DNA of 32,000 bases, taken from the NCBI RefSeq assembly GCF_001462395.1, contig NZ_LNTB01000001.1, forward strand, positions 1,290,001-1,322,000, read 5' to 3'. The notes beneath the pieces are model-generated. The model was not told the origin of the DNA. It saw nothing but the letters and a program-made list of their open reading frames with translations, and ran no database searches. Source of the stretch: Pyrodictium occultum (lineage in GTDB: Archaea > Thermoproteota > Thermoprotei_A > Sulfolobales > Pyrodictiaceae). Shown here piece after piece: positions 2,632 through 24,107 of the stretch. Position 1 is the first letter of the stretch. Every line of letters begins with the position of its first letter. Position numbers and translations under genes: made by a program.

Positions 2632-3876
2632 ATGGTCGAGGAGAGGGCTGAGCCGGCAATCGCCAGGGGGAGGCTCGGCGCAGCCGGCTATACGCTCCTA
2701 GGCGTGGGCGCGGCGTTGACGCTACTAATGCTCTATGGGATATATGCTTACCAGACACTGAGCAAAGCGTCTCCGCTGCACGCACTAGTGCCCTGGGGGA
2801 TAATGGTTACAGGCTACGCGTTCTTCGCGATATCCAGCGGCGGGGTGTTCGACGCCCTCGCGATAAGGCTTGCGGTCTACTGTGAGAGGGAGGCGCTGCC
2901 GCTGGCGCGTAAGACCCTCTGGCTCTCACTAGCCCTACTAATACCCGGCATAGTGCTGGTATTCGCAGACCTTACCCACGTAATGCACGCCTCCTGGATA
3001 TACCTTGGATTCAACCCCTCGTCGAGGATAGCATGGAACGGTATACTCTACATAATCTATGCCGTGTTCCTGGTGGCAGCGCTGGTCTACGCCATAGCCC
3101 GTGGAGAGGGGGCGCTCACGGGGCTGGGGGGCCGCGCGCTGCTGGTAGGAGGGCTGCTGGCGAGCCTAATCCTTGAGTACAACCTGGCCATGGCCTTCGG
3201 CCAGAACCTGGCGGTGCCGGGCTGGTTCGCGGCCCCGCTGGGGGTGCTCAACATAGCGCTGGCCTTCCTGCTAGGCGCCGCCTGGACTGGGATAGGGATA
3301 GGGGAGATAGCGGTTAAGCTCACGGCGCTCCCGAGGGAGAAGTGGCGCGAGTGCTGTATCCACGGGGTCTCCAAGGAGCTCGCCGGCATGGCGGTGGCTG
3401 TAGGCTTCCTGGCGGCCTGGACGCTAGTACAGCAGTACGAGGGCTGGGGGCTATCCAGGCAGGCGGCCTCCATGCTCGCCGGGGGCAGCGTGGCATGGCT
3501 CTTCTGGCTCAGCGTGGCCTTCGCCGTCGCTGCTCCGATAGCGCTGGGGCTCTACGCTGGCGCTAGAAGGAGCAGAGCCGCCATGTTCACGGGCTCGGTG
3601 CTAGCAATAGTCGGCGGCTTCCTCATGCTCCACTCGCTGGTGGCGGCAGGCCAGGTGGCCCGGCTTGAGGCCCTGCCAGGCTACCATGGGCTAGCCGCAG
3701 CCGCTCTGGGCGGCGGCTTCGAGTCCGAGGCGCTCCACGAGCTGCTGTCAAACAGCGTGGAGGCGGCGGCCTTCGTCGGCGGCTTCGGCCTCTGGCTCCT
3801 CTTCTACGTGGCGGGGCTGCGGCTGTTAGCGGTGGAGCCCGGCGAGAAGCCGCGCCGGATACTCGTGTTCAGGTAG
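2632..3876 (+). CDS. NrfD/PsrC-type integral-membrane anchor subunit
   Basis: About 415 aa consisting almost entirely of hydrophobic helices. ATG 2632 is preceded by AGGAGGTGA (2617-2625). The alternative GTG at 2623 overlaps the TGA of the FeS gene. It is third in a Psr-like A-B-C gene order. Confidence 0.8.
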   Translation: MVEERAEPAIARGRLGAAGYTLLGVGAALTLLMLYGIYAYQTLSKASPLHALVPWGIMVTGYAFFAISSGGVFDALAIRLAVYCEREALPLARKTLWLSLALLIPGIVLVFADLTHVMHASWIYLGFNPSSRIAWNGILYIIYAVFLVAALVYAIARGEGALTGLGGRALLVGGLLASLILEYNLAMAFGQNLAVPGWFAAPLGVLNIALAFLLGAAWTGIGIGEIAVKLTALPREKWRECCIHGVSKELAGMAVAVGFLAAWTLVQQYEGWGLSRQAASMLAGGSVAWLFWLSVAFAVAAPIALGLYAGARRSRAAMFTGSVLAIVGGFLMLHSLVAAGQVARLEALPGYHGLAAAALGGGFESEALHELLSNSVEAAAFVGGFGLWLLFYVAGLRLLAVEPGEKPRRILVFR

Positions 3877-7119: not shown

Positions 7120-7956
7120 TTGGCTGGGCAGGGCCCTGGGGCGCCACGGCGGGGGTGCCTTGGGAGGGTGGAAGCTAAAAAGAGGTCAGACCTTGCTACG
7201 CCCACGCTGCTCCCTCCCCGGCCCGATCTCGGGGCGGTGGGCGTAGCCGCGGCGGCCGCCGCCCTTATACTGGTTGGAGGCTCCCCCCTAGGCCTGGCCA
7301 TAGTCACGGGGGCTGTGGTCGGCGTAATCGCTCTTCCCCTCTTCCTCCTCTTCCGCGAGATAGCCCTCTTCCACAGCCGCAGAGTGCTCCGGCCCGAGGA
7401 GGCCGGCCTCGTGGCCGAGTGGCTCCAGGCTGCGGGAGCAGCGGTGGGCGCGGGGAGCGTGACGGTCCTCTACACCTATCGGCGGGGGGCGGGCCTGCAG
7501 GTCATGCAGCTCGGCTCCACGGCTCAGGGCGAGCATATACAGGGGAGCCTGCTCGCCCACATCCACCGCGCGGCCTGGAACGCGCTCCCCGCCGCCTTCA
7601 GCTCCGGCGGCAGGGTCTACGTGGCGGTCCCGGCAAGGATAATGGAGTGGCTCTACAGTATAGCCGGCAAGAGCCGCTCCACGGCCTATCTGAGGCCCCA
7701 CAGCAAGGGGGAGGTGAAGACGGTCTACCGTATACTGAGGGAGCTCGCCCAAGCGGCCAGCCGGGGCGCCAGCCGCCTCTACACCGCCTACACAGCTACT
7801 AAGGCCTTCACGAGGCTCGTAGTATCTGGCGCTATAAGGCTCGACCCGCAGATCGCGGACAAGGTGGACAGCCTAGTTCCCGCAGAACCACCCTGGATAC
7901 GCCACAGGGTGGTTAAGCAGCTCCGGGAGGAGATGGCGAACACTATACCGCCCTAG
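7120..7956 (+). CDS. Hypothetical protein with N-terminal transmembrane segment(s)
   Basis: Long ORF. Hydrophobic stretch VGVAAAAAALILVGGSPLGLAIVTGAVVGVIALPLFLLF is followed by a soluble region of mixed composition. The start is uncertain (TTG 7120 or GTG 7168). I recognise no family. Confidence 0.45.
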   Translation: MAGQGPGAPRRGCLGRVEAKKRSDLATPTLLPPRPDLGAVGVAAAAAALILVGGSPLGLAIVTGAVVGVIALPLFLLFREIALFHSRRVLRPEEAGLVAEWLQAAGAAVGAGSVTVLYTYRRGAGLQVMQLGSTAQGEHIQGSLLAHIHRAAWNALPAAFSSGGRVYVAVPARIMEWLYSIAGKSRSTAYLRPHSKGEVKTVYRILRELAQAASRGASRLYTAYTATKAFTRLVVSGAIRLDPQIADKVDSLVPAEPPWIRHRVVKQLREEMANTIPP

Positions 7957-10027: not shown

Positions 10028-11671
10028 TTAAGGCTTTCCCCGCCTCTCCTGCCTCACCCCTATCCCAGGTATCCTGTTAACCATGTGGACAAGGTCGAGG
10101 CCCCTTACCTCCGAGTAGCCTGGCCCGGGCTCGCCGCCCAGGAGCCTCCCGAAGCCCTCCCGCAGCGCGTCGTCAACGCTCTCCGCCACCTCCTTCATCA
10201 GCTTGCCCCTGAACATGTCCAGCCTCCCGGCGAGCGCTACTAGGAGGTGGAGCTGCCCCTCCTCCACCAGCTGCTCGTTGGACTCGAGGTCCAGGGGCTC
10301 CTCGAGCCCCCGGGCTACGAGCCAGGAGCCCCGCAGCCTCGGCTTCTCCAGCCTCGGCGTCTCGGCCAGCAGCCTCCTGGCCGGGGGCCTGTAGGCGGCG
10401 TAGCTTCTCCTCCCTACGGCTAGCCTCCTGGCCTCGCTGGTCGCGTCGCGGGCCCGGTAGTCCTCCATGACTATTACCGTGTCGGCGGAGGCTATGAGGG
10501 GGAGGGAGCCGCTGGAGACTATCACCAGGGAGACCCCCTTCTCGGCCATGGAGGCGGCCTGCTCGGCTATCGTGGTGACCGTCTTCCTCCGTATCAGGGG
10601 CTCGGCGCGCTCGTCGTAGAAGAGCAGGTTCGTCGCCGAGGTGTCCTCGTCTACGAGTATGAGCCTGGCCCCCGCCTCCACAGCCTCCTGCACCGCGGCC
10701 GCCATGCTTGTAGCCCCGCTCGCGTCCCGAGTGGTGAAGCAGCCCGTGTCCCTGCCGCCGGGGAGGCTGTGGATGAAGCTCGATATGTCCACGCACTCCA
10801 CGCTCCTCCCGTCCTCCGCTCGGACCTTGACGGCCTCCCTTATCGTCACAACCCTCTCCCTGCCGTCGCCGGGCACGTGGTTGTAGATGCCGCTCTGTAT
10901 AGCCTCCAGCAGCGTCGTCTTCCCGTGGAAGGCCGTCCCCGCTATCACCGTGACACCCCTGCGGACGCCCATACCCGTCACCGGCCCCAGGCTGGTCTCG
11001 ATCTCCACCCGGAGGCTCGGCGGCGACTCGAAGGGCACAGCGCCGGGGAGTGGGTCCTCGCAGCCCCCGCAGCGCCTGGGCAGGATGCTCCCATCCCCCA
11101 CGAAGGAGACGAGCCCCATGCCGGGGAGCCTGGAGCGTATCTCCTCCTGCAGTCTCCACGCCTCCACGTGGCGTCTCAGCCCCTCCATGTCCACCCTCAG
11201 CGCCTCCTCTACGGCGCGGGGCAGCCTCTCCAGGAGAAGCTCCTCGGCCGCGTCGCCGAGGACCCGGCGCCTCCTGCTGGGCAGCCCCGCCCAGACGCGG
11301 AGGACCAGCCCATCCCTCCCCAGCTCAGCGCCGCTCCTCCGCAGCATCACCGGCCCGGGCCGAGGCACCGCGAGGAGCCCACTGTGGCCCTCGCCGAGCC
11401 TCGCTGAGTAGCGGCGGAGCGCCTGGTGGAGCCTCCGGTAGATGTAGTCAGCGGCCGCCACCGGGTGCTCGAGCGCCCACCGGGGCAGCCCCGGCCTGGC
11501 CTCTATCCTCACAACGCTCGGCGGCGCGAAGGGGTCCCCCTGCACCCTCACGACGCGGATGAGGAGGCCCCGGACCCTCTCCTCGGCGCCCCTGAGCTCC
11601 CTATACGCCTTGTAGCCCCGCCCGTCTATCACGCGGAGCACGCGGCTGATGCTAGCGCCCCTGGCAGCCAA
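10028..11671 (-). CDS. Predicted ABC-class ATPase (COG3044 / ABC_ATPase family, function unknown)
   Basis: N-terminal VIDGRGYKAYRELRG...VQGDPFAPPS and Walker-A-like GVTVIAGTAFHGKTTLLEAIQSGIYNHVPGDGRE match my memory of this family. LILVDEDTSATN looks like a Walker-B region. Confidence 0.85.
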   Translation of the reverse strand: MAARGASISRVLRVIDGRGYKAYRELRGAEERVRGLLIRVVRVQGDPFAPPSVVRIEARPGLPRWALEHPVAAADYIYRRLHQALRRYSARLGEGHSGLLAVPRPGPVMLRRSGAELGRDGLVLRVWAGLPSRRRRVLGDAAEELLLERLPRAVEEALRVDMEGLRRHVEAWRLQEEIRSRLPGMGLVSFVGDGSILPRRCGGCEDPLPGAVPFESPPSLRVEIETSLGPVTGMGVRRGVTVIAGTAFHGKTTLLEAIQSGIYNHVPGDGRERVVTIREAVKVRAEDGRSVECVDISSFIHSLPGGRDTGCFTTRDASGATSMAAAVQEAVEAGARLILVDEDTSATNLLFYDERAEPLIRRKTVTTIAEQAASMAEKGVSLVIVSSGSLPLIASADTVIVMEDYRARDATSEARRLAVGRRSYAAYRPPARRLLAETPRLEKPRLRGSWLVARGLEEPLDLESNEQLVEEGQLHLLVALAGRLDMFRGKLMKEVAESVDDALREGFGRLLGGEPGPGYSEVRGLDLVHMVNRIPGIGVRQERRGKP

Positions 11672-11806
11672 TGCTCACCCACGCCGGGGCCCCGAGGCCC
11701 CCCGGGCGGCTAAGGCTCCATCTCCCCCAGGGCCCCGGGGGCCCGCCGGCTGCGCGGCAAAGCCTCATAGCGGGTCTACGCGCCCGCAGCACCCCGGAGG
11801 CGCCGC

Positions 11807-11903: not shown

Positions 11904-12413
11904 GTGCACGGCCAGGGCTTCTTCTACGTGGGCTACCGCTACATAGCCTACTACCTCGTCTTCGACTACATAGACCCCCTCGGCTACTACGACGCCGTGC
12001 TGAGGGACGAGAGGCTCTACGAGGAGGAGACCACCAAGCTCTACTACAACATGCAGGAGCTGGTGGACCAGGAGGAGGTCGTGGTCAACGGGGAGAGGGT
12101 GAGGCCGAGGGTGGAGATGGTTGATATAGGGTTCCGGGGGAGCAGGAGCAGGGTCTTCATAGTCTTCGCCCTCCGGTTCCGGGCCCCGCTCCGGAGGGGC
12201 CGGAACGTCTACGAGAACAGGTACGAGCCCGAGGAGATAGAGTACAGCTACGAGGCCTACTGGGTCTTCCCGCCGGGCTCCAGGGTGCTCTCGGTCGACA
12301 TGGGCCCGGGGAGCGAGGACTGGGACATTGTCGGGGAGAGCACGCTGGCGATCTACGGCCGGCGCGGCGGCCGCACCGGGGGCTATGAGAGGATAGAGTT
12401 CCAGCTCCCCTAG
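11904..12413 (+). CDS. Hypothetical protein (about 170 aa, Tyr/Glu-rich)
   Basis: From GTG 11904 the translation is protein-like (GFFYVGYRYIAYYLVFDYIDPLGYYD...YERIEFQLP). The upstream part of the track ORF (11649-11903) is a Pro/Gly/Arg shadow that overlaps the ATPase start. Confidence 0.55.
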   Translation: MHGQGFFYVGYRYIAYYLVFDYIDPLGYYDAVLRDERLYEEETTKLYYNMQELVDQEEVVVNGERVRPRVEMVDIGFRGSRSRVFIVFALRFRAPLRRGRNVYENRYEPEEIEYSYEAYWVFPPGSRVLSVDMGPGSEDWDIVGESTLAIYGRRGGRTGGYERIEFQLP

Positions 12414-13258
12414 CCCCCGGCCTCCACGTAGACCCTAACCTCCCTCGGCACCAGCCTGCCCGCTCTCCGGAGCGCCTCGGCCCCGAGGAGGGCCCCACCG
12501 CCGTCATCCATGTAGTATGCCTCGAGCCTCCCGGCGCCCGGGTCGGCGTAGACGTAGAGGGTGCCCCCACCGCCCCTGCACACCACGGCGACCCTCGTGT
12601 GGAGGGCCAGCGCGTCGTCAACGATATCCATGCAGGGCTTATCCCCCGCCCTTACCTCCACCGCCCTCCCCCTGGAGGAGAGCGCTGCAAGAGCGAGGAC
12701 ATTGAACGTGTCCGAGAGCCTCAGCCCCCTTACACGCAGCATCTCCATGAGCTCCTCTAGGTCCTCCTCCCCCGCAGCCTCCACGGCCTCCCCGGGGCCT
12801 GCCGCGGGCCCCGCCTCCTGCTCCGCCGGCCGCGCGGCGGCCTCCCCGGGGGCGGGCTGGGGGCCGCCGGCCCCCTCTCCACGCCCGACCCCCGCGAGAA
12901 CGGCCCGGAGCCTCTCCAGGCCCCCGGGCACGACGGCCTCCGGCCTCTCCTCGGCATCCACTGCCACCTGGTGCTCGGTCAGCTCTATAATCTCCACCAC
13001 GCCCCGCCTATCATCCGCGCGCCTGGCCAGGAGCTCTAGGCACTCCTCTCCAGCGGCCACGGCGCCGCCCGGGGCGGCGGCTATGCACGCCAGCAGGCTA
13101 GGCGAGGCCTCCAGGTAGACCTGGAGCCCCTCTGGCGTGTAGTAGACGAGCCTCAGCCCCTCTTTCCCGAGCCCGCCGAGGGCCTCCGCGATGGCTTCCC
13201 TCAGCGTGCTGGGCCCGAGCTGTATGAATCCCCTGGTCCTCCCTCTCGAGACGAACAT
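12410..13258 (-). CDS. Hypothetical two-domain protein with Ala/Pro/Glu/Gly-rich linker; C-terminal PATAN/DUF4388-like module (by eye)
   Basis: 282 aa with an ATG start. The linker is GEGAGGPQPAPGEAAARPAEQEAGPAAGPGEAVEAAGEE. The C-terminus, VVCRGGGGTLYVYADPGAGRLEAYYMDDGGGALLGAEALRRAGRL, resembles the DUF4388 core. Confidence 0.65.
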   Translation of the reverse strand: MFVSRGRTRGFIQLGPSTLREAIAEALGGLGKEGLRLVYYTPEGLQVYLEASPSLLACIAAAPGGAVAAGEECLELLARRADDRRGVVEIIELTEHQVAVDAEERPEAVVPGGLERLRAVLAGVGRGEGAGGPQPAPGEAAARPAEQEAGPAAGPGEAVEAAGEEDLEELMEMLRVRGLRLSDTFNVLALAALSSRGRAVEVRAGDKPCMDIVDDALALHTRVAVVCRGGGGTLYVYADPGAGRLEAYYMDDGGGALLGAEALRRAGRLVPREVRVYVEAGG

Positions 13259-13426: not shown

Positions 13427-13864
13427 CTAGTGCACCACCTCGACGCCCAGGATCTCGCTCACCCTGCCAGAGCGCTCTATGATGGCCGTGTCGAAGGTAG
13501 CTATGGAGAGGCAGCCGAGCGACAGCGCGGCCAGGAGGTGGAGCAGGCTGCCAAGCCTAAGCCGGATGAGCCCCCCGTAGAGCTGGGCCTCCCGCACAAT
13601 TCTGTTGTAGTCCGGGTCCCTTACCTCGGCCCCCGCGCGGCGTATAGCGTAGTCTGCTAGCGCGTAAACCCCCTCAAGGCCCAGGCCGGGCCTCCTGGAG
13701 GCGATTAGCGCGACAAGCTCCGCCCGGGCCAGGTGGGAGGATACGAGGGCCCTGCCACCCCTCCGGAACTCCTCAAGCAGCTCCAGGGCGCGCTCGCGGA
13801 AAGCACCGTGCTCCTGGGCTAAGGCGAGCAGGAAGGTTGTGTCAAGGTAGATGCAGTCCCTCAA
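13427..13864 (-). CDS. vapC: PIN-domain ribonuclease (VapC-like toxin)
   Basis: IYLDTTFLLAL (first Asp), SSHLARAELV (Glu), ATFDTAIIE (distal Asp). 145 aa. A small upstream ORF sits 9 nt away. Confidence 0.8.
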   Translation of the reverse strand: MRDCIYLDTTFLLALAQEHGAFRERALELLEEFRRGGRALVSSHLARAELVALIASRRPGLGLEGVYALADYAIRRAGAEVRDPDYNRIVREAQLYGGLIRLRLGSLLHLLAALSLGCLSIATFDTAIIERSGRVSEILGVEVVH

Positions 13865-13873: not shown

Positions 13874-14122
13874 TCACCCTCTCTCCCGCTCAGCGGCAGC
13901 CTCCAGGGGCTTGGGGGGCTCGACCGGGGGCCCGCCCTCCCTCATGTAGCGCTCCACGAGCCTCCTCGACTCCTCGAGCGCCCTGACAACGTCTACCAGG
14001 TGGACGGCGCCTGAGACCGCTATAATCCTCTCCGCGTGCTCCCGGCTACCCGCTACCCCGTGCTCGACGAGCCTGAGCGCAAGCCTCCGTATAAGCCGTT
14101 GAAGCCCATCGCCGCCGGCCAT
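13874..14122 (-). CDS. Putative cognate antitoxin (VapB position), fold not recognised
   Basis: An 82-aa ORF immediately upstream of the PIN gene on the same strand. I see no clear RHH or AbrB motif. Confidence 0.5.
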   Translation of the reverse strand: MAGGDGLQRLIRRLALRLVEHGVAGSREHAERIIAVSGAVHLVDVVRALEESRRLVERYMREGGPPVEPPKPLEAAAERERG

Positions 14123-14148: not shown

Positions 14149-15003
14149 CTAGCTGAGCAGCAGCGCGAACACCGTGGCCAGGGGGACTATCCCGGCCAGG
14201 GCGGCTGCCGTCATGTCGGCGCCCAGCAGGTAGGCTGACGCGAAGTAGATGACTGCTACCGAGGAGCCTATAATCACCTTGAGCATGGTCTTAAGCCTTC
14301 TCAGAGAGTTGGGGCCAGCGGTGATGGGGGCTGCCGCGGCCCTCTCAGCCTCTGCGGGGGCTGCAGCCTCTTCGGCCACCTTCTCCCCTACAGAGGGCTC
14401 CGCAGCGGCTTTCACAGCCTCCACCCGTGACACCGAGAGGCTGAGCATGGTGCCGCAGTTGGGGCAGGGCTTCCTGTTGAGCACGTGGCCGCAGAAGGGG
14501 CAGACGGGCTGTGTAAAGGGTGTAGTGTGCCCGCAGCTAGGGCACGTGGCTGTGTAGACGTCGAGCACTACCCCGCAGGAGGGGCACCGGAGGGGTTTGC
14601 CCTCCACAAGCCTGCGGACCGGGTCGAGGAGGGAGGACACCCCCGGGTACTCGCCGAGCGCTATGAACGTGAAGCCCCCTCCCACGTCCGCCACGAGGAC
14701 AGCTCTGCCCTTGTACTCGCCGAGCGCTACCCTCGCTGCTATCTCGCCCCCGGGGATACGCTGGCGGAACGCCTGGAGGTAGGCCGAGGCAATAGCCGCC
14801 AGCTCGTCCGCAGCCGCCTCGTAGTCCGGGTTCCTAGCGTTGACGGCGTAGGTGAAGCCCTCGTACGCGGCCACAGTGACATCTATGCCGTCGACGGAGG
14901 AGGCCAACGCTATAAGCCTTGTGAGAACCTCCTCCGGCGACTCCGCTTTGGCCCTCTCCTGCGCTGGCACGGACAAGGAGCCCGGCTCCCTAGCTTGGTG
15001 CAC
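14149..15003 (-). CDS. Roadblock/LC7-like domain + double zinc ribbon + C-terminal membrane anchor
   Basis: Roadblock-like segment: EEVLTRLIALASSVDGIDVTVAAYEGFTYAV...GRAVLVADVGGGFTFIALGE. Zinc ribbons: CPSCG...CPSCG and CPFCG...CPNCG. The C-terminus is hydrophobic (LKVIIGSSVAVIYFASAYLL...IVPLATVFALLL). The start is uncertain (GTG 15003 or downstream GTG 14970). Confidence 0.75.
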   Translation of the reverse strand: MHQAREPGSLSVPAQERAKAESPEEVLTRLIALASSVDGIDVTVAAYEGFTYAVNARNPDYEAAADELAAIASAYLQAFRQRIPGGEIAARVALGEYKGRAVLVADVGGGFTFIALGEYPGVSSLLDPVRRLVEGKPLRCPSCGVVLDVYTATCPSCGHTTPFTQPVCPFCGHVLNRKPCPNCGTMLSLSVSRVEAVKAAAEPSVGEKVAEEAAAPAEAERAAAAPITAGPNSLRRLKTMLKVIIGSSVAVIYFASAYLLGADMTAAALAGIVPLATVFALLLS

Positions 15004-15885: not shown

Positions 15886-17391
15886 TTGCCGACAGGCTCC
15901 GTGACGCCTGGCCCGCTGCTAGGCGGCGGCCCGGGCGAGCCTCTAGTGGTCCCCCTCGACGCGGAGAGCATACACTCGCTCATAAGCGACTTCAAGCGTG
16001 TGCTCTCCAGGATAGAACTTGTGGAGGAGGTCGGCGACGGGTACGTCGTTCTCCGTGTCCCCCGGCGCTTCGGCATCCTGAGGCTCGGCTCCAGGCCTAT
16101 GCGGCTGGACATGCACGTCTATAGGCTCGAGAACGCGCTGGTGGTCCTCCTGGGCCGCGGCGCCGACTCCCTGGTCCTGGTGGTAAGTATAGCTGATGTG
16201 GGCGAGGGCGTGCACATAGTTGTCAGCGGCGGTGGCAGCGGCAGGCTATCCCCGGCGGCGGGTAGCCTGGTTAGGGGCGTGAGGGAGGCTATAGCGGGTG
16301 TAGTCGAGGAGGCCTGGCCCACGGTGAGCCTCTCCGGCGCCGACGACGAGCTGGCCGCTGCGGGCGTGCAGGACGCGGCGCTGGTGTTCTATGACAGCTT
16401 CACCCCCGTGAAGAACGTGCTCGTCGAGGCGGCGTACCGTGTCATAGCCGCCCTGGGCCCCGGCGAGTACCTGGCGGAGATACAGGGTATGCTCCACGAG
16501 TACTACTACCTCGCCCGCCTGGTCATCCGCGGCCGCAGCGTGACCGGCGTCTACGCCGAGATGGACGGGCACAGCGTCCGGGGCGAGGACGCGCTGAAGA
16601 CCGCGTGGAAGCCCCCAAGCCACCGCGTCCGCCTACTCGCCTGGGCCCTCGGAGGCCAGCGCCATAGGGTGAGGGTCAACGCCCCCCAGCCGGTCTACGA
16701 GGAGGGGCGGCACGCGGTCTACAGGCTGTGGCCCGGCGGGCGCCCCGAGTACGGCGGGCTGACAGTCTCCACGTACATCGTAGGCGACGGCTACGAGTAC
16801 GCCGTGGTGGACCCGGCGGGGCCCGCGGAGTGGAGCCAGGCTGTACGCGGCCTCGTCGGCGACATGGAGCAGCTGCGCCTCATAGTGGCCGGGGATGCGA
16901 GCGCATCCACCTACCCCCTGCTTAGGGAGCTCTACGCCGCCTCCCCCGCCCAGGTGCTGGCCCCGCCCTACGCCTGGGCCCAGCTAGCAGGCCTCCTAGA
17001 CCAGCCGGACCGCGTGTCGGCCGTACCCCTAACCGGGGGCCGCGTCAGGCTGGGGCGGAGCGAGCTACACGTAATACCGGCCAGCTGCTGCGGCGGCATG
17101 CTGTCCCTCTACGACCAGGCCTCGAGGACGCTCTTCACAGGCCCCGTGCTGGGCTTCCTGCTTCCACCCGGCCTGCCCTACGCCGGGGACCCCGTGCTCC
17201 GGCGTGCCCTCCGCGCCTACCTGCGGAGCACGCTCACGCCCCAGGCCCTGGGCCGCTGGCTGAAGACGGTCCAGGGCCTGGAGGTTGAGAGGCTGGCCCC
17301 GCGCTACGGCCCCCTCGTTGAAGGAGTGGAGCGTGTAAAGTCGCTGCTCGGCGAGGCGGCGGAGCTCGTGGCGGAGGGTGAGGCGGAGTGA
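15886..17391 (+). CDS. Multidomain hypothetical: N-terminal domain paralogous to that of the 20104 gene, central PATAN/DUF4388-like module, C-terminal degenerate metallo-beta-lactamase-fold (flavodiiron/ODP-like) domain
   Basis: The central segment LARLVIRGRSVTGVYAEMDGHSVRGEDALKTAW resembles the DUF4388 core. The C-terminal blocks YAVVDPAGP...LRLIVAGDASASTYPLL...LHVIPASCCGGMLSLYDQASRTLFTGPVLG...LAPRYGPL follow MBL block order, but HxHxDH is replaced. The start is uncertain (TTG 15886, GTG 15901 or GTG 15943). Confidence 0.7.
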   Translation: MPTGSVTPGPLLGGGPGEPLVVPLDAESIHSLISDFKRVLSRIELVEEVGDGYVVLRVPRRFGILRLGSRPMRLDMHVYRLENALVVLLGRGADSLVLVVSIADVGEGVHIVVSGGGSGRLSPAAGSLVRGVREAIAGVVEEAWPTVSLSGADDELAAAGVQDAALVFYDSFTPVKNVLVEAAYRVIAALGPGEYLAEIQGMLHEYYYLARLVIRGRSVTGVYAEMDGHSVRGEDALKTAWKPPSHRVRLLAWALGGQRHRVRVNAPQPVYEEGRHAVYRLWPGGRPEYGGLTVSTYIVGDGYEYAVVDPAGPAEWSQAVRGLVGDMEQLRLIVAGDASASTYPLLRELYAASPAQVLAPPYAWAQLAGLLDQPDRVSAVPLTGGRVRLGRSELHVIPASCCGGMLSLYDQASRTLFTGPVLGFLLPPGLPYAGDPVLRRALRAYLRSTLTPQALGRWLKTVQGLEVERLAPRYGPLVEGVERVKSLLGEAAELVAEGEAE

Positions 17392-17966
17392 AGGGCCCGT
17401 ACCTTGACCTCCGGGGATACCGTGGCTTCATCCCCTACAGGGAGCTGGAGAGGAGCATGGAGGGTGTGAGGGAGCTGCGGCTCGCGGTAGACCCCGAGGC
17501 GGTGCCCCTCGTGGAGGCGTGGGCCCGGCTCCAGGGGCTCCAGGCGAGCCTGGCGGAGGACGGTACCCTGCGGCTGGCCAGGAGAGGTGACAAGCAGGGC
17601 GGCGCCAAGGAGAAGGTGGAGCGGGAGGCTGCTGCCCCGCCGCTCTGGGTCGACCATGGCTCCTGGGACAGCGAGCTCTCGAAGCGCCTATCTGATGCGG
17701 GCTACATAGTCAACACCGTCATCCAGGCCCCCGTCCTCTACCGGGGCCACCCCTCCGGCTTCAACTACGATAGGCTCCGGGGCCGCTCGGCCCTGCTCCG
17801 TGTAACCATGCCAGACAGCGACTACTTTCTGGCCGTTCGCGGCGGCAGGGTGGTGGCGGCCGCCCAGCTGGGGAAGCCCCTGAGCCCCCGCCAGGCGGAG
17901 ACGCTGCTGGCCACGCTCCAGTCCAGCTCGGAGGCCCTCCTAACGGTCTACAATACATCCGTCTAG
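17388..17966 (+). CDS. Hypothetical: Cys-less TusA/SirA-like N-terminal domain + PATAN/DUF4388-like C-terminal module (by eye)
   Basis: The GTG start overlaps the upstream stop (GTGA). The N-terminus, LDLRGYRGFIPYRELERSMEGVRELRLAVDPEAVPLVEAWARLQG, parallels TusA LDxRGxxCPxP...D. The C-terminus has DYFLAVRGGRVVAAAQLGKPLSPRQAETLLATL. Confidence 0.65.
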   Translation: MKGPYLDLRGYRGFIPYRELERSMEGVRELRLAVDPEAVPLVEAWARLQGLQASLAEDGTLRLARRGDKQGGAKEKVEREAAAPPLWVDHGSWDSELSKRLSDAGYIVNTVIQAPVLYRGHPSGFNYDRLRGRSALLRVTMPDSDYFLAVRGGRVVAAAQLGKPLSPRQAETLLATLQSSSEALLTVYNTSV

Positions 17967-18069
17967 CGTGACGGCACGGAGCCCCTAGGCGCCTCCAGCT
18001 GCCTCCGCAGCCCCCCGGGCTGCCCGTAGGGGCCTCTCCCCGGCTCCAGGGCTTCTAGTGGACATAGGC

Positions 18070-18075
18070 TTTTAT
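18070..18075 (+). promoter_or_regulatory. TATA box giving a leaderless-type transcript for the beta-propeller gene
   Basis: TTTTAT is centred about 26-27 nt upstream of ATG 18099. Confidence 0.6.
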
Positions 18076-18098
18076 CCTACGGAACTTCCGCCTGCTGC

Positions 18099-19955
18099 AT
18101 GGTGACGCTGGTGGCCCTCGCCAGGACGCTCCTGCTGCTCGCCATCCTGGCCGCGGCGCTCTATCTCCTCAAGCCCGTCCACGCCGCGGAGGCCGGGTCT
18201 AGCACCCCCCAGCCCTCGTGGAGCGTCATCCTGGGATACAGCGTCACCAGGCTAGCCTGGAACACCTCTAGCGACCACTTGTTAGTGGGCACTAGCGGCG
18301 GCGCCGTCCTGCTCGACCGGTCCGGCCACAAGGTGTGGGGGCTGCTGCCCAAGGAGCCGGTCTACGACGTGGCGTTCTCCCCCGACGGGAGGCTTGTGGC
18401 AGTGGCCGCTGGGAGGATATGGCACTACGTATACGTGCTCGACGCTGCCACCGGGAGGGAGGCCGCGAGGATATTCAGCATATGGGGCGACCTGGCGAGC
18501 GTCTGCTGGGTCTCCACCGGCTTCCTCGTCGCGGGGGAGTCGGGGAGGCCGAGGCTCCACCTCTACAAGCTGGTCCAGGGGCCGACGGGGTCCCTGGAGC
18601 CGCGCAGCCTGGCGGTGATAAGCCTAGGGGATGGGGACTATGGCGGCGTGGCCTCCATAGCCTGCATACCCGGGAAGGAGCAGGTGGTTGTAGGCATGCG
18701 CAACGGCTACATAGCCCTCGTCTCCCTCATTTCCGGCAAGCCCGTCTGGGTGTCGCCCAGCCTCGGGGGGCAGCTGGCCGGCATGGCTCTCGGCGGCGAT
18801 GTTGTGGCGGCAGCCGTCATCGACAAGAGCCACGGTGTCTCAAGGCTCTACCTGCTATCGCTCGCTAGAGGGGAGGTTATGGCCTCCTATAGCGTCGAGA
18901 CGCTTATCACCTCGATAGCGGTCACGGGCAACTACCTCATAGCGGGTGATCTAGGCGGCGACCTCTACCTCTTCCAGTACGGCCGAGGAGGCCTCGAGCT
19001 GGTAGACATAGACAGGGTCTCGCTTGCCCCGATAACAGCTATCGCGGTCAGCCCCGACGGCTCCCAGCTGGCCATAGGCGTGGAGAAGGGTGTCGTAGCC
19101 TCGTTCAACGCCGCCGACTTCATCTACGAGAGGCTTGCCAAGATAGTGTCTGGGGTGAGCACCGTCTACACCCTGATCAGCGTAGCCATTGATGATAGGC
19201 CCGTGGTGTTGTTCAGGACTGTCATAGACCTGCCGTCCGTGCTTTCGCTGAACGTGGGCAGCTATAATGTATCCTTCGACGCGGTCCTGGAGCAGGTTAG
19301 GCTGCCCTGCAACGTCGTGCTTGAGGTGAACGTGGTGGAGCTGAAGGAAATGGACACCAATATGACTGTAGCAACTATGCTGCTCGACAAGCCTCTAGAG
19401 ATATCCTGCCACGGCATAAAATACGGCTACCAGGAGTCTAATGTGAGCGTCCATGGCCGGGCGGTGCTAGCCCTCTCCGAGACCAGTAGCCTGCGGCTCC
19501 TCGGCGACAGGGAGCATGTACTGGTTAGGCTGCAGGCAGCGCCCTACATCGCGGTGTACTACGGGGGCCGGCCCGGCAGGCTGGCCTCCGAGATAAGGGT
19601 GGATAACCTGGTCCCGGCCACAGTCATACTAGCCAAGTACTTCAGCCGCATCCAGGGCCTAGTGGCGCCGGCCCCCGGAGCAGCTACAAGGACGGTAACA
19701 ACCACTGTCACCACTACCGTGACGAGGACGGTGACCACGACCCCGGCTGGAGCCTGCGGGGGTGCAGCCACGCCTCCGGCCAGCTCGGCCTCCAGGGGGC
19801 CCGCGGCCAGCGCGGCCACCAGCGCCGCCGGGGGAGCCTGGTCCGGCAGCAGGCTGGCCGCGGCAGGGATCGTGGCGGCCCTGACGGCTATAGGCCTTCT
19901 CATGCTCGTAGCGGGTCATAGGAGGAGGGGCGGCAGGAGAGGCGGCGCCGCTTAG
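18099..19955 (+). CDS. Surface beta-propeller (WD40/YVTN-like) protein with signal peptide, Thr-rich stalk and C-terminal transmembrane anchor
   Basis: N-terminal signal LLLLAILAAALYLLKPVHA. Repeats such as VYDVAFSPDGRLVAVAAG and ITAIAVSPDGSQLAIG. Sequons NTS, NVS, NMT, NVS. Stalk TRTVTTTVTTTVTRTVTTT. TM helix LAAAGIVAALTAIGLLMLVAG followed by the basic tail HRRRGGRRGG. Confidence 0.85.
   Translation: MVTLVALARTLLLLAILAAALYLLKPVHAAEAGSSTPQPSWSVILGYSVTRLAWNTSSDHLLVGTSGGAVLLDRSGHKVWGLLPKEPVYDVAFSPDGRLVAVAAGRIWHYVYVLDAATGREAARIFSIWGDLASVCWVSTGFLVAGESGRPRLHLYKLVQGPTGSLEPRSLAVISLGDGDYGGVASIACIPGKEQVVVGMRNGYIALVSLISGKPVWVSPSLGGQLAGMALGGDVVAAAVIDKSHGVSRLYLLSLARGEVMASYSVETLITSIAVTGNYLIAGDLGGDLYLFQYGRGGLELVDIDRVSLAPITAIAVSPDGSQLAIGVEKGVVASFNAADFIYERLAKIVSGVSTVYTLISVAIDDRPVVLFRTVIDLPSVLSLNVGSYNVSFDAVLEQVRLPCNVVLEVNVVELKEMDTNMTVATMLLDKPLEISCHGIKYGYQESNVSVHGRAVLALSETSSLRLLGDREHVLVRLQAAPYIAVYYGGRPGRLASEIRVDNLVPATVILAKYFSRIQGLVAPAPGAATRTVTTTVTTTVTRTVTTTPAGACGGAATPPASSASRGPAASAATSAAGGAWSGSRLAAAGIVAALTAIGLLMLVAGHRRRGGRRGGAA
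19686..19742 (+). repeat. Thr/Val codon low-complexity tract (stalk/linker) inside the beta-propeller gene
   Basis: aca agg acg gta aca acc act gtc acc act acc gtg acg agg acg gtg acc acg acc encodes TRTVTTTVTTTVTRTVTTT. Confidence 0.8.
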
Positions 19956-20103
19956 GCTTTTCGGAGGCCGGTCCGTGTCCGCCCCTACATTCCTCTACGC
20001 GCCTGGCAGCGCCATGGCTCGCTGCGGCGGCCCCGCGCCATGGGCGACGCGTATTTAGTGTCGGCACGGCCCTGGAGGGATTGAGAGGGCGGGGTTATAG
20101 ACC

Positions 20104-20889
20104 TTGGCCCCTGTTAAGAGGAGCGCGGTGCTCGACGTAGCCGCCCCCTGCGACCGGGTTATACGGCTGCTATCCTCCCGCGACCCCTCCTCCTTCCTGG
20201 CGGGCGCGGCCAGGCTCAGCGGCCAGGGAGAGAAGCGCGGCGTGAAGGTGCTTACCTTCGCCTCCGCCAGGTACGGCAGCCTGCGGGTGGAGGCCGAGGA
20301 GAGGGTCGAGGCTGACCGCCTGGAGCTGCTCCTCCGGGGCGACCTCCACGGCTCCGTGCGGGTTGTCGGGGTCAGCAAGGGCAGCGGGTGCCGCCTCTAC
20401 CTCGAGGCTGAGGGGGAGGGTAAGCTCGTCGAGGAGTACGGCGGTGACGCCCTCTCGCGCGTAATAAACCGTATAATGGTCACGCTGGTCAGCGTGTTCC
20501 CCGCCACTCTGCAGCCCCGGGTCTCCGGGGGCAGGCTCGGGGACTACTTCATCGAGCTCCTGGAGCTCATAAACCTCGCCCAGGGGGGTAGCGCGAGGAT
20601 CCAGGGCAGGCTACGCAGTATAGCAGTGGACCTCAGCCGCGGGGTCGTGATAAACTCGGAGGGGCTGGGCGAGGAGGAGGCTAGCACGATAGCGAGGGCC
20701 CTCTCCGACGCCTACTCTAGGCTTGTTGAGGCCCTGGGTATTCTCGGTGATGGCGAGGTTTCACGCCTCGTAGTATCGGGTGACAAAAGCCTTATAGTGG
20801 CCAATGTAGCGGGTAAAATATCTGTGGCCACCGTGCTGCAGCAGGGTGGCGGAGAGGAGGCCGGCGCCTCCGGCTCCGGGGCGTCGTAG
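20104..20889 (+). CDS. Hypothetical: N-terminal domain paralogous to the 15886 N-terminus (possibly SRPBCC-like) + C-terminal Roadblock/LC7-like domain
   Basis: The C-terminus, IAVDLSRGVVINSEGLGEEEASTIARALSDAYSRLVEALGILGDGEVSRLVVSGDKSLIVANVAGKISVATVL, fits the Roadblock pattern. The N-terminus, VLDVAAPCDRVIRLL...LRVEAEERVEADRLELLLRGDLHGSVRVVGVS, parallels the 15886 product. TTG start. Confidence 0.7.
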   Translation: MAPVKRSAVLDVAAPCDRVIRLLSSRDPSSFLAGAARLSGQGEKRGVKVLTFASARYGSLRVEAEERVEADRLELLLRGDLHGSVRVVGVSKGSGCRLYLEAEGEGKLVEEYGGDALSRVINRIMVTLVSVFPATLQPRVSGGRLGDYFIELLELINLAQGGSARIQGRLRSIAVDLSRGVVINSEGLGEEEASTIARALSDAYSRLVEALGILGDGEVSRLVVSGDKSLIVANVAGKISVATVLQQGGGEEAGASGSGAS

Positions 20890-20895
20890 AGGCTG

Positions 20896-21723
20896 ATGCC
20901 CCAGTCTCCCAGCCGCCCTTGGAGGCTGATGAGCTTGTCAAAGCCGTTTGTTATGAGGCTGCTGCGTAGGCGCCCGCTCAGCTACACTGTCCTAGTCCTC
21001 TTCATACTAGACCGCTCCCTGAGCATGATGGAGCCCAAGACCTATGACTACCGCGGCAAGTGGTTCCACCTAGTGGACCTGGTTGAGGCTCTCCTACGCA
21101 GGCTGGGCCGCAGCAGGATGGCCCCCGCCTTCCGGGTCGGCTTCGTCTGGTTCAGCGACGACGTCGAGGTGGTTGAGTGGAACGGCGAGGTCTACTTCCC
21201 CGTCGCCCCGAGGAACGTGGCGCTCGACGTGTTCCGTAAGAGTGCGGAGAGGAACCGGCCCTACGGCATGACCGCCATGGCTGACGCGCTGGAGGCGGCG
21301 GCGTCCGTGGTCGAGCGGTATGTGGACCAGTTGACGCTGCCGCCGGAGAAGTATGGGACTCTCTTCCTCTTCACCGACGGCAGGGAGACCAGGAGAACGG
21401 TGGACGACGTGGTGGTGGCAGCGGAGAAGATAACCATGGAGCTGGCGGAGAGGATGAAGAAGCTCAACGAGAGGAACCGTATAGGCCTCGCAACCATAGC
21501 CCTCGGCCAGGACGCCGACAGGGAGACGCTGAGGGATATAGCGAGCTTCCTGCGTGAGGCGCAGCGCCGTGTCCTCGAGGACCGGGGGCTCCTGGACCTG
21601 GTGGACCCGCCCTACCACGAGAAGATGTTCATAGACGCGCCCGCCGATGACCGTATAACGCGCGAGTGGGAGGAGGCTGTGAGGAGGTTCGTGGAGAGGC
21701 TGAGCGAGACGGCTACGGTCTAG
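20896..21723 (+). CDS. von Willebrand factor type A (vWA) domain protein with intact MIDAS
   Basis: MIDAS elements are LDRSLSM (DxSxS), GMTAMADAL (Thr) and LFLFTDGRE (Asp). There is no signal peptide. It starts 6 nt after the upstream gene. Confidence 0.85.
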   Translation: MPQSPSRPWRLMSLSKPFVMRLLRRRPLSYTVLVLFILDRSLSMMEPKTYDYRGKWFHLVDLVEALLRRLGRSRMAPAFRVGFVWFSDDVEVVEWNGEVYFPVAPRNVALDVFRKSAERNRPYGMTAMADALEAAASVVERYVDQLTLPPEKYGTLFLFTDGRETRRTVDDVVVAAEKITMELAERMKKLNERNRIGLATIALGQDADRETLRDIASFLREAQRRVLEDRGLLDLVDPPYHEKMFIDAPADDRITREWEEAVRRFVERLSETATV

Positions 21724-21733
21724 GCCTTCTAGG

Positions 21734-22789
21734 GTGTCAGCCCCCATGGCTAGGCTCAGCCTGGTTTTCCACAGCGGCTTCGTGGTGTCCACTGATAGCG
21801 ATGAGTGGGAGCTGCTCGATAGCGGCGGCGAGGCCGACATATACCGGGCTAGGCTCCGGGGCGGGCAGAGCTACATAGTCAAGCTGTATACGCCCAAGTA
21901 CACGGGGCTCGCCCGGCCGGTGGAGCGCATCGCTGAGATGCTTAGGAGGCTCACTAGGCTCCGCAGGAGGTGTGGGGGGTCGATACCCGAGAGCCTCTGG
22001 GCCCGCGGCCTCCCCGTAGCCGTGGGAGCCCTCGAGGACAGGGCCGTGCTAGTGTTCCGGGAGGTGGAGGACTTCACTACGGTATCCGAGCTGGTGAACA
22101 ACCCGGAGCTGCTGGGGGAGTACCTCGAGAGGCACAGCCTGGAGGAGAGGAGGCGGTTCGCCCGCGAGGTGCTGCGGGGCCTCGCCTGCCTAGACGCGGC
22201 CGACATAGTCCATGTCGACGCTACGACGCCCAACGCGGCCTACGGCAGGGTCGGGGAGACTAGAGGGGTATTCCTCTACGACTACGAGACGGCGGGCATT
22301 ATAGGCTCCGAGGACTACCCCCTCACCGTTCTCCCCGCCCGCGACGCCAACCTCCTCCCCGTGGAGGTGCTGGCCGAGGCCGGGGTTGAGATACAGCCCC
22401 CGGACCCGGGCGAGCTGCCCATACCCCTCCAGCCCTCCCGGCTCCCCAGGCCCATCCTCTCCTGGATAGCCTGGACCCCGACCTGGTACGGCCTGCAGCT
22501 GGTGGCGCTGGTCTACAGCGGCCTCAGTCCCTTCCACGGCCTCCCCGTGCTGAGCAGCAGCTACTGGCTAGAGATAGTGGAGGCCGAGGCCGCGCAGGGC
22601 TACCCGGGCGGCTGGCCCCCGCTGAGCATGGTGGACCAGGGCTACCTGGACCAGACCGAGTACCTGGAGCTGAGCAAGCTGTGGAGAAGCCTTGGCGAGG
22701 ACGTGGTGGAGGCGATGTACCACGTCTTCATCGTCGACCCGGGCGAGCGGCGGGGCATGCCGAGCTACCCACTCTCGTCAATATTCTAG
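21734..22789 (+). CDS. Eukaryotic-like Ser/Thr protein kinase-like protein
   Basis: Gly-rich loop LLDSGGEADIY. IVKLY carries the catalytic Lys. Catalytic loop IVHVDATTPNAAY (HxDxxxxN). LYDYETAG sits in the DFG position. YGLQLVALVYSGLSPF resembles subdomain IX. It starts 10 nt after the vWA gene; alternative start ATG 21746. Confidence 0.8.
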   Translation: MSAPMARLSLVFHSGFVVSTDSDEWELLDSGGEADIYRARLRGGQSYIVKLYTPKYTGLARPVERIAEMLRRLTRLRRRCGGSIPESLWARGLPVAVGALEDRAVLVFREVEDFTTVSELVNNPELLGEYLERHSLEERRRFAREVLRGLACLDAADIVHVDATTPNAAYGRVGETRGVFLYDYETAGIIGSEDYPLTVLPARDANLLPVEVLAEAGVEIQPPDPGELPIPLQPSRLPRPILSWIAWTPTWYGLQLVALVYSGLSPFHGLPVLSSSYWLEIVEAEAAQGYPGGWPPLSMVDQGYLDQTEYLELSKLWRSLGEDVVEAMYHVFIVDPGERRGMPSYPLSSIF

Positions 22790-22946: not shown

Positions 22947-24107
22947 TTGAACCACCGCTCAGCAGCCCTCGCCCTGGCCGCCCTCGCCGCCTCGGCTGCC
23001 GCCCTCGCCCTGCTAGCAGGCTTCGCCACCACCCAGAGCCCGCTGAGCAGCTTCTACGCGGTGGGCTGCGCGCAGGCGCCCAACGAGCCCATAAGCCTCC
23101 AGCAGCTCGGCAGCATAACCATAGCCCCAGCCTCCGGGGCCGAGGGCTCTCTCGAGGAGCCCGAGTGGCTCAAGATAACAAGGCACAGTGATGTCGACTA
23201 TGTGAAGCTGGAGCTGAGCCTGGAGAACGCGGATCAGCTGCGCCGGCTCCTAGACTACCTAAGCATAGAGGTTAGGGAGGCATACCAGGTCTTCGAGGGC
23301 AACGTGACGACGGATCAGCCGTACTGTAAGAGGGCTCCTCAGGATGAGTGGCCGCACCTCTCCTGGGCCATAGACGGCCACGGGAAGGATATAGCCGAGA
23401 AGCTTAAGCACGTCCTGCGGGGCCACGTGCAGAAGGGAATAGACGTCGATGCCGCGGTGCAGGACATACTCAGCAGAGTCTCCTACGCCACCATAACCCT
23501 AGCCTACCGCAACTACACCTACAACGGCACCCTATACCTGGCCCCGGGCAACGGCACAGCAATCAACGAGACCCTCCACGAGATAGCCCGCCACCTGGTC
23601 CGGGGAAGCGGGATAGTGGTCCACACGCCCTACGCTGACGGTAGAGGCTTCCACCACGTAGTGATTGAGGCCGACACGCAGCCCCCAACACTGTTCTTCG
23701 ACTCCGCGGATTACGGCATAATAGTGGGCAACGGTACGAGCGGCCACAGGCCCGCGTCCGCTCTCAACTTCACCCTGCGGCTAGACTTCTACGATAGCTC
23801 CGGCAACTGGCTGTTCGCCATATGGTGGGACACGATCTACTACAGCTATGCCGGCGGCCGCTTTAACAACTGGGCCTCGTACGAGTATCTCAGCGTCGCC
23901 CGGCCGGTCCTCAAGCTGGGCAACGTTAGGGCCGTGCTCAGCCTGGGTAAGCCCAGCGCAGTGGTCGCTGTGGACGGGGACTCCTGGCTCTACGATGGAG
24001 GCCGGGCGGCGGTCCTGGGCGCCCGGGTGTACTACGAGGCTAGGGAGGGCGTGCTCTTCGACAGCGTGCCCCTGGTGATCAACGCCAGGGTGGTTGAGAC
24101 GGGCTAG
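22947..24107 (+). CDS. Large secreted paralog of the CanA/TasA-like filament-subunit candidate, with a sequon-rich insertion
   Basis: It shares the N-terminus AASAAALALLAGFATTQSPLSSFYAVG.AQAPNEP and the C-terminal blocks (LENADQL..LDYL, GKPSAV, YYEAREGVLFDSVPLVIN) with the 26060 product. Seven N-x-S/T sequons. TTG start. Confidence 0.75.
   Translation: MNHRSAALALAALAASAAALALLAGFATTQSPLSSFYAVGCAQAPNEPISLQQLGSITIAPASGAEGSLEEPEWLKITRHSDVDYVKLELSLENADQLRRLLDYLSIEVREAYQVFEGNVTTDQPYCKRAPQDEWPHLSWAIDGHGKDIAEKLKHVLRGHVQKGIDVDAAVQDILSRVSYATITLAYRNYTYNGTLYLAPGNGTAINETLHEIARHLVRGSGIVVHTPYADGRGFHHVVIEADTQPPTLFFDSADYGIIVGNGTSGHRPASALNFTLRLDFYDSSGNWLFAIWWDTIYYSYAGGRFNNWASYEYLSVARPVLKLGNVRAVLSLGKPSAVVAVDGDSWLYDGGRAAVLGARVYYEAREGVLFDSVPLVINARVVETG
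22982..23089 (+). repeat. Copy A of a 108-nt near-identical dispersed repeat (5' coding segment of the paralogs)
   Basis: By my alignment it matches 26090-26197 with 3 mismatches (ctcgCcgcc vs ctcgTcgcc; gggCTgc vs gggTGgc). Confidence 0.9.

Follow-up and report, generated by a model that had tools for sequence, protein, structure and literature searches.

The TerY-P triad, reportedly first described by Anantharaman, Iyer & Aravind in 2012, appears to be the closest described kind of system to the operon considered here, a cluster of a Roadblock, a vWA and a kinase gene in a 32-kb stretch of the Pyrodictium occultum genome (the whole of which we call the window), the resemblance being one of architecture with only weak hints in sequence. 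More generally, the combination of a vWA protein, a kinase and a PP2C phosphatase encoded together has been described before as a predicted type of phospho-switch (PMC11090510; PMC4978471; PMC7159879, section 29). In the TerY-P triad a TerY-like vWA protein is combined with a PP2C and with a Ser/Thr kinase that carries a fused zinc ribbon (or an OB fold) (PMC11090510; PMC4978471); the triad is hypothesised to act as a phosphorylation switch that senses metals, and its kinase–OB variant works as an antiphage system in its own right (PMC11090510, citing Gao 2020; PMC4978471). Neighbourhoods in actinobacteria that encode a kinase (carrying a zinc ribbon or transmembrane helices), a PP2C and a stand-alone vWA protein have been connected with GTPase systems of the GAP1-N2 type (Kaur et al., 2020; PMC7159879, section 29). 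The archaeal system with which an earlier note compared the present locus is that of Sulfolobus acidocaldarius, where motility is repressed through ArnA and ArnB, with the kinases ArnC and ArnD and the phosphatase PP2A (PMC6509490; PMC7472852; PMC5300886); ArnB-type (vWA2) proteins are composed of a vWA domain plus a beta-sandwich and a phosphorylated four-helix bundle, and ArnA of a zinc finger and an FHA domain (PMC6509490).

With moderate confidence, we interpret the P. occultum locus as a signalling operon vertically inherited within the Pyrodictiaceae and built on an ancient, sparsely distributed vWA–kinase–PP2C phospho-switch, its co-transcribed core being the three genes ORF1, ORF2 and ORF3 (ORF, open reading frame); we infer its substrate, the direction of signalling and its output, as well as the co-transcription.

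The operon and its relatives inside and outside the Pyrodictiaceae

The three products are 100% identical to P. occultum CF15_06930, a ‘VWA domain-containing protein’ and CF15_06940, and all three still carry hypothetical or generic annotation. The features of the core, with lengths in nucleotides (nt) and amino acids (aa), are:

20052–20059, plus strand: TATTTAGT, putative archaeal TATA box, 45–52 nt 5′ of the ORF1 start
20104–20889, plus strand: ORF1 (CF15_06930), 261 aa, an SRPBCC/START/CoxG-like domain followed by a Roadblock/LC7 domain
20104–20493, plus strand: ORF1 N-terminal SRPBCC/START/CoxG-like domain, aa 1–130 (AlphaFold2 and Foldseek)
20539–20841, plus strand: ORF1 C-terminal Roadblock/LC7 domain, aa 146–246 (AlphaFold2, Foldseek and a sub-threshold Pfam match)
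20929–21723, plus strand: ORF2, vWA protein with a complete MIDAS (metal ion-dependent adhesion site), its conserved C-terminal helix having L-S-x-T-A at the end (Pfam and alignment)
21746–22789, plus strand: ORF3 (CF15_06940), 347 aa, atypical eukaryotic-like protein kinase (AlphaFold2, Foldseek and alignment)

As longest ORFs the genes span 20104–20889 (ORF1), 20896–21723 (ORF2) and 21734–22789 (ORF3), all on the plus strand. The earlier note had described three tightly packed genes with gaps of 6 and 10 nt; the packing is confirmed, but that spacing applies to the longest ORFs only, since homologue alignments and the deposited annotation favour later starts for ORF2 and ORF3. For ORF2, homologue alignment together with the sequence points to the ATG at 20929, close to the annotated TTG at 20935, and for ORF3 the likely start is the ATG at 21746. 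The gaps then become 39 nt between ORF1 and ORF2 and 22 nt between ORF2 and ORF3, which is still tight. The 10-nt string GAGGCTGATG occurs twice (20889–20898 and 20922–20931), at both candidate ATGs of ORF2, and each copy provides a GAGG Shine–Dalgarno-like element just ahead of the ATG, so that the true start of ORF2 is ambiguous. Neither intergenic gap contains an AT-rich box, and a box comparable to TATTTAGT lies 40–50 nt 5′ of the ORF1 start in nine related loci; TATTTAGT is the probable promoter of the operon. The gaps without AT-rich boxes and the TATA-like box upstream fit a single transcript beginning ahead of ORF1.

Related Pyrodictiaceae loci were obtained by a genome scan and exact look-ups and include those of Hyperthermus butylicus, Pyrofollis japonicus and Pyrodictium abyssi. 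The order ORF1–vWA–kinase was kept in 13/13 of those that cover the region. A chance adjacency of the three is ruled out by this synteny. The usual gene order is F, G, a divergent PP2C (PF13672), ORF1, vWA, kinase, D and A, the letters standing for neighbours listed further below, and the PP2C is found inside the cluster in L001–L006, L008 and L010–L013. The genes for D, a zinc-ribbon protein, and A follow the kinase in nine loci, with D directly downstream and on the same strand, in keeping with the earlier proposal that a zinc-ribbon protein is a partner of the kinase system. The most divergent locus, L010, with a kinase of 46% and an ORF1 homologue of 25% identity, encodes a PP2C, a polytopic membrane protein, the ORF1 homologue, the vWA protein and the kinase, and has neither D nor A.

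Gene order is altered in P. occultum and P. abyssi. Both in the window and in P. abyssi (L033), D and A lie upstream of the core on the opposite strand, with a PIN toxin–antitoxin pair between them, and in a metagenome-assembled genome (MAG) of Hyperthermus (L009) just the start of D is seen upstream, at the contig edge. The P. abyssi orthologue of the PP2C (17761–18579 of that locus, minus strand) sits 6 kb downstream of the kinase beside a gene similar to those of the cannula subunits (Can). Searching the 32-kb P. occultum window by tblastn with four orthologues, and its six-frame ORFs with a hidden Markov model, recovered no PP2C. A rearrangement in P. occultum has shifted D and A upstream and taken the PP2C out of the locus, and the phosphatase is probably encoded elsewhere in the genome, as it is in P. 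abyssi.

The core of the module extends well beyond the family. A kinase profile run exhaustively against 1.84 billion representative proteins found a very small family, with no more than 29 relatives at E ≤ 1e-3, nine of them at E ≤ 1e-10; for the metagenome locus search a tighter subset of the kinase alignment was used, the broad alignment being too divergent. The distant members among them, of 310–350 aa, come from metagenomes with a GC content of 26–63%, from one Lokiarchaeota MAG and from one bacterial contig, on which the gene lies beside a relaxase and a type IV secretion system (T4SS) coupling protein. A small vWA gene directly precedes the kinase in all 17 distant loci that have upstream sequence. 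Of the 15 whose downstream sequence runs to 300 nt or more, 13 have as their next gene one for a PP2C homologous to that of the Pyrodictiaceae, often fused to long coiled coils (300–500 aa in amplified triads). The triad is orthologous across phyla: the distant vWA proteins are orthologues of ORF2 at 30–45% identity, with the MIDAS, the C-terminal helix and the invariant Thr of the terminal S-x-T-A all kept. No ORF1-like or D-like gene was present in any distant locus. From these loci, which hold vWA, kinase and PP2C without ORF1 or D, the ancestral unit is read as vWA–kinase–PP2C, with ORF1, D and A as accretions of the Pyrodictiaceae.

Some distant loci have additional copies of these genes. 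Locus L019 has four vWA genes in a row (434–3630) and one on the opposite strand (7189–7929), the Lokiarchaeota locus L018 has a second vWA gene (10945–11763) after the PP2C, and L025 and L030 show a kinase–vWA–kinase–PP2C arrangement.

Domain composition of the core proteins

Single-sequence searches of the PDB with ORF1, ORF2 and ORF3 returned nothing useful, and the assignments below draw on family alignments, profiles and models. ORF2 matches Pfam VWA (PF00092) with an E value of 2.1e-7, over the gathering cut-off. Its MIDAS residues (D39-x-S41-x-S43, T126 and D161) do not vary among 20 family members, nor in the relatives at 30–45% identity from other phyla. The protein has neither a signal peptide nor a transmembrane segment, the hydrophobic stretch that follows an N-terminal RRR being the first vWA strand, which runs into the MIDAS; its description in the earlier note as a cytoplasmic vWA protein with all MIDAS residues was therefore accurate. 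At 262–264 aa it consists of the vWA domain and about 50 further residues, and these hold the invariant motifs VDPPYHEKMFID and EWEEAVRRFVERLSETA.

ORF3 (residues numbered here from the 351-aa ORF beginning at 21734) was modelled by AlphaFold2 from its family alignment with a predicted local distance difference test score (pLDDT) of 92.6 and a predicted template modelling score of 0.91, and the model shows a full protein-kinase fold. Foldseek gave 1598 PDB matches at E ≤ 1e-3, of which the best 50 consist entirely of protein kinases or proteins with the kinase fold, the alignments covering practically the whole length; structural matches include ROP18, PRPF4B, CaMKII, DYRK1A and CLK. Sequence models register it only faintly (Pfam Pkinase E = 0.22, below the cut-off; partial NCBIfam matches to Bud32 at 4e-6). 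Invariant in 18 family sequences are the S30-G-G-E-A loop, K50, E64, H160-x-D162-x4-N167 and D183-x-E185. In a wider set of 19 kinases, with identities as low as 19%, no variation is seen at the Gly of the glycine loop, at the Lys of beta3, at the catalytic Asp and Asn, at the Asp that binds metal and the Glu that follows it, at the alphaF Trp, at Trp and the second Pro within a W-P-P motif, or at R87 and G94, which lie between alphaC and beta4. The Glu of helix alphaC, by contrast, varies among the distant members. The kinase Lys, HxDxxxxN loop and DFG-position Asp that the earlier note had picked out are accordingly retained in the 18 family sequences, and from residues and model together ORF3 looks catalytically competent. 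Its atypical features are a catalytic loop, HxD-(A/L)-T-T-x-N, that aligns in the profile with the HGDLTTSN of TP53RK/Bud32 and has no Lys at D+2, and a metal-binding motif, D183-x-E-G, in place of DFG. The protein ends at the kinase C-lobe, with no Cys cluster, zinc ribbon or OB fold.

ORF1, by its AlphaFold2 model, is a START–Roadblock fusion, the START part of which had been overlooked in the earlier note. The model was built on a shallow alignment of four sequences (the family alignment has 12 members) and has a mean pLDDT of 73, with 80–96 in aa 1–130 and 60–82 in aa 146–246. Residues 1–130 adopt a beta-alpha-alpha-beta6-alpha helix-grip topology and match in Foldseek the CoxG-family protein 2ns9 of Aeropyrum (E = 1.7e-7), as well as 2d4r, 3p9v, the PYR/PYL receptors and Bet v 1. 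Residues 146–246 have the alpha-beta-beta-alpha-beta-beta-beta topology of Roadblock/LC7 and match 3kye (E = 8e-5, root-mean-square deviation 2.4–3.1 Å) and dynein LC7 chains. Pfam Robl_LC7 (PF03259) aligns with aa 179–244 at E = 0.0046 and 17.1 bits, under its gathering cut-off of 23, and just 2/12 family members match it at E ≤ 0.1. The Roadblock/LC7-like end that had been proposed is nonetheless supported, topology and structural matches being in agreement in spite of the low Pfam score. Among the loci compared, ORF1 is confined to those of the Pyrodictiaceae. Our search of the literature, which was not systematic, found no published description of an SRPBCC/START–Roadblock fusion. Roadblock/LC7 domains such as those of MglB, CvnB, LAMTOR and dynein LC7 dimerise and act as regulatory platforms; the C-terminal domain of ORF1 shares their fold in the model, but differs from these platforms in being fused to an SRPBCC/START domain and in having no gene for a partner small GTPase among the window ORFs scanned.

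Neighbouring genes

The neighbours of the core in the window are:

12410–13258, minus strand: protein A, a conserved domain at either end with a Pro/Ala-rich linker between them (a coiled coil in some relatives); follows D in relatives
13427–13864, minus strand: PIN-domain gene (PF01850, E = 8.9e-7), between A and D
13874–14122, minus strand: small ORF upstream of the PIN gene, between A and D
14149–15003, minus strand: protein D, conserved N-terminal domain of about 125 aa, four CPxC pairs (double zinc ribbon) and a C-terminal membrane anchor; relocated and inverted here
15886–17391, plus strand: protein F, C-terminal ODP-family di-iron domain of metallo-beta-lactamase fold after about 290 aa (PF19583, E = 5.1e-8)
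17388–17966, plus strand: protein G, overlapping the F stop by 4 nt and always paired with F
18099–19955, plus strand: protein H, WD40-type beta-propeller of 618 aa (WD40-type matches in Pfam)
22947–24107, plus strand: cannula-subunit homologue of 386 aa, 157 nt downstream of the kinase, a Can-family paralogue with an insertion of about 200 aa
26039–26569, plus strand: cannula-subunit homologue of 176 aa, matching CanX (9h8b, E = 4.9e-58) and CanA (7uii, E = 8e-41)

Protein D had been described in the earlier note as a zinc-ribbon-bearing Roadblock protein 5 kb upstream, of which the zinc ribbon stands and the Roadblock is not confirmed. Pfam DZR was found in 8/8 members (E = 2.4e-7 for D itself), whilst Pfam gave no Roadblock domain in the eight, hhalign against ORF1 gave a probability of 5.7%, and a profile search of the PDB yielded zinc ribbons alone and no Roadblock. 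The predicted order of helices and strands in D does resemble a Roadblock domain; nothing else does. Protein A matches no Pfam family. The PIN gene and the small ORF ahead of it are a probable VapBC-type toxin–antitoxin pair, which splits A and D, adjacent in relatives, and the same insertion is found in P. abyssi.

Protein F is encoded upstream of the module in the window and in L001, L003, L005, L006, L008, L009, L012, L013 and L033, and its first 290 or so residues belong to no recognisable family. The N-terminus of G is TusA-like (LD-x-RG ... W-A-x-x-x-G) but without the catalytic Cys, and its Pfam matches are weak (TusA at 0.039; DUF4388/PATAN, in the C-terminus, at 0.055); when G and A were compared as possible paralogous PATAN/DUF4388-like domains, hhalign of their alignments gave 0.3%. 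In protein H a hydrophobic segment at the N-terminus is combined with a repeat rich in Thr and Val (TVTTTVTTTVTRTVTTT) and, at the C-terminus, a Thr-rich stretch with a membrane anchor, and the protein is predicted to be secreted. It is present just in the window, in P. abyssi L033 and in L009, where it occupies the place at which other relatives have the divergent PP2C. The distant triad L014 also has a divergent beta-propeller gene, of the FG-GAP type, upstream.

The longer cannula-subunit homologue is, in comparison with the 176-aa protein, 49% identical at its N-terminus and 43% at its C-terminus. Three Can-like genes are interleaved with the same cluster in P. abyssi, and none was found in the other Pyrodictiaceae loci compared, which places the origin of the signalling module before its association with cannula genes. 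Two can-gene clusters have been reported for the P. abyssi genome (bioRxiv 10.1101/2024.12.30.630787), and the Can-like genes at the module are likely one of them. That the module regulates cannulae is only a possibility.

At the far end of the window, plus-strand genes at 4–3876 encode a molybdopterin oxidoreductase, a 4Fe-4S subunit and an NrfD-type membrane subunit, together a polysulfide/thiosulfate-reductase-like operon that fits a sulfur-respiring lifestyle and is unrelated to the vWA–kinase module.

Comparison with known systems, rival explanations and meaning

In the mechanism that we favour, the kinase and the PP2C would set the phosphorylation state of a component of the module. The likeliest target would be the vWA protein itself, at the Thr of its C-terminal L-S-x-T-A tail, a residue favoured because it is invariant from Pyrodictium to Lokiarchaeota and bacteria. 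The metal-bound MIDAS face could then capture or release an acidic or phosphorylated ligand and so switch the assembly of a complex. ORF1 would serve as an input or scaffold subunit, its START/SRPBCC pocket binding a small hydrophobic ligand and its Roadblock domain dimerising, protein D may tether the complex to the membrane, and the adjacent gene pair with the ODP di-iron protein (of O2/NO/Fe type) may add an input of the redox or O2 kind.

Several observations weigh against this interpretation. The usual partner of a Roadblock domain is a small GTPase, and none is encoded among the window ORFs scanned; the ORF1 model itself derives from four sequences, with a pLDDT of merely 60–82 in the Roadblock part. 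A heterodimer of ORF1 and D would need a Roadblock-like domain in D, and the searches described above did not confirm one. As the window holds no PP2C, reversibility of the phosphorylation in P. occultum is unproven. The catalytic loop of ORF3, without the Lys at D+2 that is canonical in Ser/Thr kinases, is like that of the Bud32 and RIO enzymes, which act largely as ATPases.

This last point leads to an explanation to which we give a low probability, namely that ORF3 is in vivo not a protein kinase but an ATP-driven conformational switch or ATPase that remodels the vWA/Roadblock complex, with the PP2C acting on another substrate or on an autophosphorylated intermediate. The Bud32-like loop, the D-x-E-G motif in place of DFG and the variable alphaC Glu of distant members all speak for it, but the ORF3 model differs from the minimal Bud32 and RIO folds in having a full C-lobe, an activation-segment-like stretch and helices alphaF–alphaI and aligns over its whole length with canonical kinases, and the conserved pairing with a PP2C argues for a cycle of protein phosphorylation. 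It is also unlikely that the triad is an anti-virus or conflict system of TerY-P type, sensing infection or a metal or nucleotide signal and triggering defence, of which the Pyrodictiaceae copy would be a fixed island. Its architecture matches that of TerY-P, a variant of which serves by itself as an antiphage system (PMC11090510, which cites Gao 2020), the extreme patchiness over archaea and bacteria with GC contents of 26–67% suggests horizontal transfer, vWA and kinase genes are tandemly duplicated in some loci, and the bacterial member lies beside a PIN gene, the relaxase and the T4SS coupling protein. Distant members also match PADLOC models weakly (TerY at 0.0028, STK_OB at 7.9e-4). The position of the module in the chromosome and its neighbours (the ODP pair, D and A) are, however, stable across several genera, unlike a defence island, and neither a nuclease nor any other effector accompanies it. 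None of the window proteins matched a PADLOC TerY or STK_OB model at E ≤ 0.01, ORF3 giving only weak kinase-domain matches to MkoA (3.4e-4) and mad6, and tblastn with ORF2 and ORF3 found no match in 72,556 plasmids (PLSDB). Membership of a known defence system was rejected on the PADLOC result.

The signalling operon that we favour does share much with the TerY-P triad: a small vWA protein that stands alone, keeps its MIDAS intact and is encoded directly upstream of the kinase in all loci, a kinase like those of eukaryotes with its catalytic residues (by fold and the invariant K, D, N and D), a PP2C in the cluster of relatives, a patchy and apparently mobile distribution, and a predicted phosphorylation-dependent switch. 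In the Pyrodictiaceae the zinc-ribbon protein right after the kinase recalls the fusion of kinase and zinc ribbon. The differences are that the kinase here bears neither an OB fold nor a zinc ribbon at its C-terminus, nine relatives encoding a double zinc-ribbon protein as a separate product after the kinase; that this window has no PP2C gene; that no DNA-processing or restriction genes are associated; and that the Pyrodictiaceae add the SRPBCC–Roadblock protein, the membrane-anchored zinc-ribbon protein and protein A. The actinobacterial neighbourhoods likewise encode the same three domains together, with zinc ribbons or transmembrane helices accompanying the kinase, and their predicted role is regulated assembly of complexes through vWA–peptide interactions, but the present module is archaeal, has no GTPase, tubulin or HSP70, and is likened to them by architecture and not by sequence relatedness.

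More doubtful than either of the two rivals above is an Arn-like regulator, in which the vWA protein would be the counterpart of ArnB, a Roadblock or zinc-ribbon protein would replace ArnA, and the kinase would phosphorylate the vWA protein in a complex repressing a surface structure such as the archaellum. The set of domains is the same in this crenarchaeon (a vWA domain with MIDAS, a zinc-binding partner truly linked to the kinase, and a eukaryotic-like kinase and phosphatase), both systems are regarded as phosphorylation-dependent complexes, and within the genus Pyrodictium genes for subunits of a surface structure, the cannulae, are interspersed in the cluster. The architecture differs, however. 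The Arn kinases are unlinked to arnAB and the kinase here is within the operon; the Arn phosphatase is a PP2A and that of the relatives here a PP2C; and ORF2 lacks both the beta-sandwich and the four-helix bundle that bears the ArnB phosphosites. The FHA domain of ArnA (PMC6509490) is, as the earlier note had said, absent, Pfam finding none in the 39 window ORFs scanned, and D, itself without FHA, has a double zinc ribbon and a membrane anchor and not a finger of the RanBP2 type. A Sulfolobus vWA2 (ArnB-homologue) chain was not among the PDB matches of the ORF2 and wider-family profiles, its presence in the PDB copy searched being unconfirmed, and none of the window ORFs scanned was recognised as an archaellum gene. 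Orthologous triads occur in Lokiarchaeota and bacteria without a zinc-ribbon partner. The earlier view that a Roadblock protein stands in the place of the FHA partner fails for the same reason: ORF1 is a lineage-specific addition to a triad that is found far outside the Pyrodictiaceae without Roadblock or zinc-ribbon proteins, and is therefore no substitute for FHA. What survives of the proposed Arn-like phospho-switch is a phosphorylation module that centres on a vWA protein and whose kinase is apparently active, not a specific relationship to Arn, and as judged from sequence the comparison is an analogy at the level of domains and not one of membership.

A bolder reading, which we regard as speculative and improbable as a whole, is that kinase, vWA protein with invariant C-terminal Thr tail and PP2C form an undescribed, ancient and horizontally mobile family of phospho-switches distinct from classical TerY-P, which would have been domesticated in the Pyrodictiaceae as a membrane-tethered sensory complex whose START–Roadblock protein reads a hydrophobic ligand without a GTPase, and which in Pyrodictium would control the calcium-assembled cannula matrix. 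If the link to cannulae is functional, it would offer a first handle on the regulation of cannula formation.

The ORF1 product places a Roadblock domain outside its usual GTPase context and joins it to a START-type ligand pocket. To our knowledge, the protein phosphorylation networks of hyperthermophilic Crenarchaeota are known almost only from the Sulfolobales. The operon that we propose would be a second system, compact and self-contained, with kinase, phosphatase, adaptor and candidate sensor side by side at the level of the family; its relatives in Lokiarchaeota and bacteria permit comparative tests, and the module has been kept throughout a family whose growth range is 95–110 °C.

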